Shown here one piece after another: positions 18,138 to 18,154 of a stretch of DNA of 32,474 nt (within the stretch, counting starts at the first letter, position 1; every line of letters begins with the position of its first letter). Under the pieces are notes generated by a model that had not been told where the DNA came from, did no database searches, and saw nothing but the letters and a program-made list of their open reading frames with translations. A program made the position numbers and the translations under genes. The stretch lies in IMG/VR virus record IMGVR_UViG_2554235297_000015. One strand, given 5' to 3'. This DNA comes from a virus (lineage: Duplodnaviria; Heunggongvirae; Uroviricota; Caudoviricetes).

Positions 18138-18154
18138 AGGGTGCTGAACACCCT
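18138..18154 (+). promoter_or_regulatory. dyad element copy B (AGGGTG ctgaa CACCCT), upstream of gene I
   Basis: Perfect 6 bp inverted repeat with a 5 nt spacer. 15 nt of it are identical to copy C at 30057..30071. Confidence 0.45.

Follow-up and report, generated by a model that had tools for sequence, protein, structure and literature searches.

The window, meaning the whole stretch of 32,474 nucleotides that was analysed, matches the chromosome of E. coli O127:H6 E2348/69 at 100% identity and belongs to a Mu-like transposable prophage, 36 kb in whole length, that splits eutC of this strain. The whole prophage with its host flanks (42 kb) is designated L001, and L001 coordinates equal window coordinates plus 3077; the two halves of eutC (ethanolamine ammonia-lyase) lie at L001 1508-1945 and 37662-38135, so that the eut operon of E2348/69 is split by the Mu-like element. 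Gene order is Mu-like throughout: the early part features a ner-like gene, transposase A, B, early genes, GemA and one Mor-family gene (9188-9655), and the late part runs through holins, endolysin, terminase, portal, F, G, I, T, sheath, tube, tape measure, N, P, gp45, gp46, gp47 and gp48. The genes central to this analysis are the following:

9188..9655, + strand: Mor/C-family late activator gene, candidate binder of the box described below (Pfam Mor, 28.5 bits against a cut-off of 24.9)
10143..10535, + strand: holin gene, first of the lysis block (Pfam Phage_holin_8, E 3.2e-25)
18195..19310, + strand: gene I, head protease/scaffold (Pfam Mu-like_Pro, E 4e-98); its ATG is the predicted +1 (18194/18195)
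30110..30460, + strand: gp46, baseplate wedge subunit (Pfam GP46, phrog_180); its ATG is the predicted +1

The region between G and I is matched at 95% identity or more in 55 of 5426 complete E. coli genomes (about 1%); as these E. coli relatives of the region are all at least 95% identical, they are unsuited to footprinting. The comparison set comprises approximately 160 related loci, of which 79 are viral loci collected via the I protein, 79 were collected via gp47, and five are named genomes collected via the activator; the named-host sample is five loci from an eight-sequence activator alignment, and covers taxonomic breadth thinly. A near-identity search of the phage collection returned only an unrelated 538-bp match in a Yersinia phage, and searches of open-access papers for the box sequence, and for "leaderless" together with "Mu-like", returned nothing relevant.

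Three copies of a motif and the box they share

A perfect dyad with 6-bp arms and a 5-nt spacer, AGGGTGCTGAACACCCT, is present at 18138-18154, exactly as described in the first-pass annotation, which had read it as a late-activator site occurring three times; the 15-base stretch GTGCTGAACACCCTC (18141-18155) recurs without change at 30057-30071, again as claimed. The third copy, GGGGTGCTGAACTCCCC, lies at 9980-9996 and has one mismatch over the 15-nt core as had been reported, but three over the 17-mer, and the end given for it (9997) was one base too far. It is the motif that recurs at three sites, not the dyad: the copy at 30057 has AAGTG in place of GGGTG, as it begins right after the gp45 stop codon (TAA, 30054-30056) and so lacks the left arm, while the stem of the copy at 9980 contains a T.T mismatch. 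The sites do precede the lysis genes (holin ATG at 10143), gene I (ATG at 18195) and gp46 (ATG at 30110), and each copy of the core occupies one of the few intergenic gaps in the late region.

The core common to all copies, GTGCTGAACNCCC, has exactly three matches in the 42-kb L001 at one mismatch or fewer, all on the + strand, against 0.19 expected and a largest count of 2 in shuffled sequence; the 15-mer at three mismatches or fewer has seven matches against 0.94 expected, a number reached in 0 of 100 shuffles. The repeat is beyond chance, and the motif is real and functional-looking. A search of the whole prophage finds it only at the three late-operon starts and on one strand, which bears on the earlier question whether it is confined to late-operon upstream regions; it is likewise kept at the corresponding positions in relatives with no more than 50-65% protein identity.

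Comparison of these relatives redraws the motif. What is conserved is an imperfect dyad of 16 bp, (G)CTGA-N6-TCA(G)(C), in which two 5-bp inverted repeats flank a C-rich centre; the conserved symmetry, GCTGA-N6-TCAGC, is centred 4.5 bp to the right of the dyad first drawn, which corresponds to the left half plus the spacer of the 16-bp unit. The consensus of 56 dereplicated sites is cYRCTGAACCCCYTCAnC, and by halves and spacer the relatives read GCTGA-ACCCCC-TCAGC. At the same 56 sites the arms of GGGTG-N5-CACCC are complementary in 91 of 336 cells (27%), which equals chance, so the dyad proposed in the first-pass annotation is not the unit under conservation. A 16-bp imperfect dyad with a G/C-rich 6-bp spacer is found at all three sites of the window:

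9985..10000, + strand: box 1, GCTGA-ACTCCC-CCAGC, centre 9992.5; predicted lysis-operon promoter, in relatives kept directly 3' of the activator gene
18143..18158, + strand: box 2, GCTGA-ACACCC-TCCAC, centre 18150.5; predicted promoter of gene I and the head operon
30059..30074, + strand: box 3, GCTGA-ACACCC-TCACC, centre 30066.5; predicted promoter of gp46 and the baseplate-wedge operon
18138..18154, no strand assigned: the dyad as first drawn, AGGGTG-CTGAA-CACCCT, overlapping box 2; lineage-specific, arms not kept in relatives

The right half-sites in the window (CCAGC, TCCAC and TCACC) are imperfect, matching at 3-4 of 5 positions, which counts against their reading as activator sites. In close relatives the motif is retained at sites 1 and 2; at loci with 54-68% identity in I the flanks have diverged, yet GCTGAACCCCCTCAGC remains at the same distance from the I ATG. 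Upstream of gp46, CTGAAC starts exactly 50 nt before the ATG in 77 of 79 loci, mostly as CCCACTGAACC(C/T)CTTCAC, and the box-to-ATG distance is fixed at 50-51 nt for I and gp46 alike. Across all related loci the box is strongly biased in strand (143 on + against 8 on -). The regular expression by which sites were collected partly enforces TGA/TCA symmetry, making the 75% symmetry figure partly circular; the collections anchored on the ATG, upstream of I and upstream of gp46, are free of this circularity. The same arrangement is found in the named Xenorhabdus, Photorhabdus, Trabulsiella, Intestinirhabdus and Buttiauxella genomes, and in Klebsiella phage ST405-OXA48phi1.1 the three boxes stand at lys, I and gp46. 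A box consensus of this kind is usable for annotating the late promoters of related Enterobacterales prophages.

Sites 1 and 2 also have CAGTACCC just 3' of the box (10000-10007 and 18159-18166), in the -35 region, where nearer relatives have GCTACCC; this may be a further contact, akin to the adjacent downstream bases in Mu.

Spacing to the -10 hexamers and the candidate activator

Of 72 dereplicated hits, 56 have a hexamer of the form xAxxxT that begins 38 or 39 nt past the C of CTGAAC, with the 38-nt offset alone accounting for 48 of the 72 and other offsets for 0-10 each; the 16 hits that have no hexamer at 38/39 nt are mostly weak matches within genes. At lysis-type sites, which carry no ATG or hairpin constraint, the hexamers at this fixed spacing are TACCCT, TACACT, CAGAAT, CAGTAT, CATGAT and TATTCT. 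The hexamers in the window are:

10024..10029, + strand: -10-like TACCCT, 38 nt past the C of CTGAAC; predicted start about 10036 (+/-2)
18182..18187, + strand: -10-like CATCAT, 7 nt before the gene I ATG
30098..30103, + strand: -10-like CAGACT, 6 nt before the gp46 ATG; hexamer A and T invariant in 34 distinct relatives

The distance from dyad centre to hexamer start is 31.5 bp; at Mu Pmom, measured here, the centre of TTATGCCCCAATAA (35702.5) likewise lies 31.5 bp before the -10 hexamer TAAGAT (35734). This spacing would place the dyad at -43.5, the published position of the Mor and C sites of Mu: each of these proteins binds 16 bp made up of two 5-bp inverted repeats around a G/C-rich 6-bp spacer, with the centre at -43.5 (PMC4390567, PMC2582627), and the C site is a 16-bp imperfect dyad at -43.5, with bases -52 to -34 required at Plys (PMC2582627). 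The Mu geometry used for this comparison is that of Pmom and the published statements only, placement by eye at Plys, PI, PP and Pm being unconvincing. Counting 43.5 from each dyad centre, transcription starts are predicted at about 10036, 18194/18195 and 30110; the first would give a leader of approximately 107 nt to the holin ATG at 10143, with the Shine-Dalgarno sequence AGGAG. A consensus scan of 17900-18260, the gap between G and I, finds neither a canonical sigma-70 -35/-10 promoter nor a terminator, so the -10 hexamer there stands without a -35 hexamer. The -10 hexamers of the window are weak (CAnnnT), a point against the promoter reading.

The product of 9188-9655 had been named as the only Mor/C-family protein of the window, and it is the only such ORF in the whole prophage as well when searched with an HMM that also detects Mu C and Mor. 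It belongs to phrog_836, "late transcriptional activator" (E 3.5e-42), and among proteins of known structure its family profile picks up Mu C (9l0x, E 2.5e-6) and Mor (1rr7, E 0.008), aligning through linker, helix-turn-helix and C-terminal tail; the linker motif FLGGxxFYIP is common to this product and Mu C. Full-length pairwise comparison with Mu C gives no significant match, with 17 of 41 residues identical in the one aligned segment. Where the activator homologue is at least 49% identical, every locus has one box immediately 3' of that gene and another upstream of I; the box is also present with homologues at 27-32% identity, and loci with only Mu-C-like or weaker homologues have no box upstream of I. 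By analogy with Mor and C of Mu, the 9188-9655 product is the phage-encoded candidate that would bind the box, as a symmetric oligomer, and activate the promoters.

Based on the conserved dyad, the hexamer spacing equal to that of Pmom, the predicted placement at -43.5 and the co-occurrence with Mor/C homologues, the sites are read as activator-dependent late promoters; it is considered quite likely that the three boxes belong to the late promoters of the lysis genes, I and gp46 in the Mu-like prophage of E2348/69, and that these are switched on by a Mor/C-type activator as in Mu. The 9188-9655 product would sit on the box, just upstream of the missing -35 element, and would from there recruit sigma-70 RNA polymerase to the weak -10 hexamer (TACCCT, CATCAT or CAGACT); transcription would begin at the three starts predicted above, the latter two giving leaderless mRNAs for I and gp46. 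The late-activator proposal of the first-pass annotation thus survives in its substance, upstream elements of late promoters for a Mor/C-family protein, through strand, conservation, hexamer spacing and co-occurrence, while its dyad does not. The result is a map of the late circuit of a Mu-like prophage in EPEC E2348/69, with one activator gene, three boxes and three predicted start sites.

Start codons of gene I and gp46

Shine-Dalgarno sequences are absent upstream of both I and gp46: complementarity to the anti-Shine-Dalgarno sequence extends over at most 3 nt for I and is nil (0 nt) for gp46, and by this measure gp46 ranks lowest and I among the lowest of 50 prophage genes. The predicted +1 is in both cases the A of the ATG; together with the missing Shine-Dalgarno sequence this makes the I and gp46 mRNAs probably leaderless, with start sites predicted from the position of the -10 hexamer. 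Among distinct upstream regions, 49 of 52 for I and 34 of 34 for gp46 have an xAxxxT hexamer 6-7 nt ahead of the ATG, other box types included. The combination of this hexamer with a missing Shine-Dalgarno sequence is seen in nearly all related Mu-like phages, whatever the box type, and suggests that leaderless late mRNAs are widespread among them. Efficient leaderless translation in E. coli needs an AUG start codon; the start codon is ATG in the window and in nearly all relatives, the exception being gp46 of Klebsiella phage ST405-OXA48phi1.1, whose GTG would initiate a leaderless mRNA only poorly in E. coli and is counted against this reading. The cI mRNA made from PRM of phage lambda is an example of a leaderless mRNA; here, as there, a -10 hexamer 6-7 nt before the ATG, the lack of a Shine-Dalgarno sequence and an activator-dependent promoter come together, though the start sites in the prophage are predicted ones. 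Unlike cI, the genes in question are late structural genes, and one relative starts with GTG.

The start codon of gp46 is also part of a strong RNA hairpin:

30087..30115, + strand: RNA hairpin, 13-bp stem with a GAC loop, dG -26.2 kcal/mol, z -6.7

The -10 hexamer occupies the loop and its closing pair, and the AUG lies in the 3' arm. Across 34 distinct sequences, pairing is kept in 93% of cells and compensatory changes occur at 5 of 11 pairs; among the cells that are not Watson-Crick, G.U (29) far outnumbers A.C (3), and the sense strand is more stable than the antisense strand (p 0.005). The covariation, the excess of G.U over A.C and the sense-strand stability point to selection of the hairpin at the level of sense RNA. 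In the Klebsiella phage the stem partner of the GTG start is CAC instead of CAU (paired by hand). The hairpin of gene I in the window (18180-18202) is weaker, at -10.3 kcal/mol and z -2.5; GC-rich palindromes around the hexamer are frequent upstream of I in relatives, and display no sense-strand bias (p 0.72).

As a transcript that starts at the ATG does not contain the 5' arm, the gp46 hairpin would form only in read-through RNA, where the ATG would be buried. If true, translation of the first cistron would be set by where transcription began. It is hypothesized that a broad clade of Mu-like phages, apparently not including Mu, uses this as a translational switch defined by the start site, in which a Mor/C-type activator at -43.5 gives leaderless I and gp46 mRNAs and an AUG hairpin is present in read-through RNA alone; the proposal is a tentative one and is given rather less than an even chance. 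Mu mom is translationally controlled by a stem-loop that hides the start codon and is opened by Com; gp46 resembles mom in having the start codon of a late gene inside an RNA stem-loop, and differs in that no Com homologue is annotated in the prophage and in that the gp46 hairpin would be missing from the promoter-proximal transcript. The probable leaderless transcripts and the start-codon hairpin are the less expected parts of these findings; if confirmed, they would amount to an unusual extra control of late genes in transposable phages.

Alternative readings and related systems

The motif is short, which is all that speaks for a functionless repeat arisen by chance or left by recombination; given the shuffle counts and the retention of the box at three homologous positions in diverged relatives, such an origin is practically negligible. 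Scarcely more probable is an RNA hairpin GGGUG-CUGAA-CACCC serving as a processing, antitermination or stability signal in late transcripts, an alternative already offered in the first-pass annotation. The copy at 18138 could form a 6-bp stem (-12.5 kcal/mol, z -1.9), and site 1 of some close relatives carries a perfect 7-bp dyad, GGGGGTGCTGAACACCCCC; however, only the 18138 copy folds better than shuffles, those at 9980 and 30057 folding just like them (z -0.01 and 0.03), and the latter has no left arm. The chance-level complementarity of the arms over the 56 sites comes without any compensatory pattern, and it is the primary sequence CTGAAC...TCA that is kept, not the pairing, so the dyad does not behave as a structured RNA.

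The box could instead be a single-stranded RNA site for a translational activator that, like Com, opens the start-codon hairpin of I and gp46 in transcripts from upstream promoters. The constant box-ATG distance at these two genes, the covarying sense-strand hairpin that holds the gp46 AUG, and the ill-suited GTG of the Klebsiella phage all sit well with such a role, and the lack of a terminator between G and I means that read-through RNA with both box and hairpin should exist. This is nevertheless considered unlikely, since the lysis-type boxes, and with them the "middle" boxes, keep the 38-nt spacing to the hexamer where there is no ATG or hairpin and where leaders are long with ordinary Shine-Dalgarno sequences. 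In addition, the A and T of the hexamer are invariant even in the unpaired loop, the dyad symmetry and the predicted -43.5 geometry fit a DNA-binding Mor/C site, and no com-like gene is found among the prophage annotations; Haemophilus phage SuMu, whose unrelated dyad is GGAAG-N2-CTTCC and which has no hairpin, places the centre of its gp46 copy at the same distance, 43.5 nt before the A of the ATG. A similarly small probability is assigned to promoter elements read by a host factor, an alternative sigma factor or another phage protein. The product of 9682-9960, a conserved phage protein (phrog_7152) whose gene separates the activator gene from box 1, might itself bind the box or act as a cofactor, and GAAC bears a superficial likeness to -35 elements of the ECF type. 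Against this, no sigma-factor gene is among the prophage annotations, the spacing from CTGAAC to the hexamer is 32 nt and not about 17, and the occurrence of the box follows whether a Mor/C homologue is present and how far it has diverged; a variant box also precedes a second Mor/C paralogue in phages of Xenorhabdus and Photorhabdus, comparable to the Mor-to-C cascade of Mu.

Read as Mor/C-type activator boxes, the sites share several features with Mu. As at the C-dependent late promoters of Mu (Plys, PI, PP and Pmom), the Mor/C-family gene lies just 5' of the lysis genes, several predicted late promoters have a -10 without a -35, and a 16-bp imperfect dyad with a C-rich 6-bp centre stands at the distance from the -10 found at Pmom. 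Of the Mu promoter set (lys, I, P and mom) that the first-pass annotation had taken as its model, the lysis and I promoters have counterparts here; the third predicted promoter is at gp46, not at P (gp44), and a mom promoter is absent. The half-sites are CTGA/TCAG here against TTAT/ATAA in Mu, the CTGAAC-type box is found on neither strand of the Mu genome, and the prophage boxes, which are not of the TTAT-N6-ATAA form, fall outside the C regulon proper; they appear to belong to the known Mor/C promoter type with a DNA specificity different from that of Mu. At I and gp46 the predicted +1 is the ATG, apparently unlike in Mu, where the distance-matched hexamers upstream of I are not -10-like and P has a Shine-Dalgarno sequence. 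Taken with SuMu, these boxes portray a Mor/C family with a rigid promoter geometry and a changing specificity (TTAT/ATAA in Mu, CTGA/TCAG here, GGAAG/CTTCC in SuMu), and provide material for the evolution of specificity in a family whose activation complexes have recently been solved.

The prophage has a single activator in place of the Mor-to-C cascade of Mu. The 5+6+5 layout of its boxes is that of the Mor-dependent middle promoter Pm; unlike C, which is driven by Pm, the activator gene here is preceded by an intrinsic terminator and a plain TATAAT and not by a box. The terminator-like element is a hairpin with a T run (9099-9126) after the 8611-9087 ORF, and the perfect TATAAT (9153-9158) has no good -35 and lies approximately 30 nt before the activator gene; as no CTGAAC box stands before it, the activator gene seems to be under its own, differently controlled promoter. 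A Pm-like box before a second paralogue is seen only in the Xenorhabdus/Photorhabdus relatives (L028, L042, L057, L161 and L163), which have two Mor/C paralogues with the variant box ACTGAACCCCTTCAA before the second; in these phages CCACTGAACCCCTTCAAC, followed by AATACT, precedes that gene. The pair looks like a Mor-to-C cascade acting on two closely similar boxes.

Several minor features accompany these sites. The 8611-9087 ORF, between GemA and the activator gene, has a signal-peptide-like N-terminus (MMKKWLFCLVGVIFSCSVLAQ), its own terminator and no match in Pfam or PHROG, and looks like a moron. In the gap between G and I, CGTTTTTAAAAGGGTTTTAAAAACGG at 18078-18105 is conserved in relatives and resembles the part of the corresponding Mu gap in which a gyrase cut site is annotated (L081 17879-17880), and hence may be a strong site for gyrase. 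At 11614 (11613-11660), GCTGAACGCATCAC with a correctly spaced CATGAT downstream was considered as a fourth box and set aside, its spacer being one base short and its position inside coding sequence; it lies in a small ORF upstream of the DUF1804 gene, and could be a weak fourth site or a chance match. A minus-strand near-match at 27235-27249, conserved in relatives, was likewise set aside as coding conservation, being inside gene N and without the rest of the box or a hexamer. In one relative (L024) an extra box, GCTGAACACCCTCCC, is present at 15161, approximately 5 kb 3' of I, and an ATG lies close to where one would be expected; a fourth late promoter may thus exist in some relatives.
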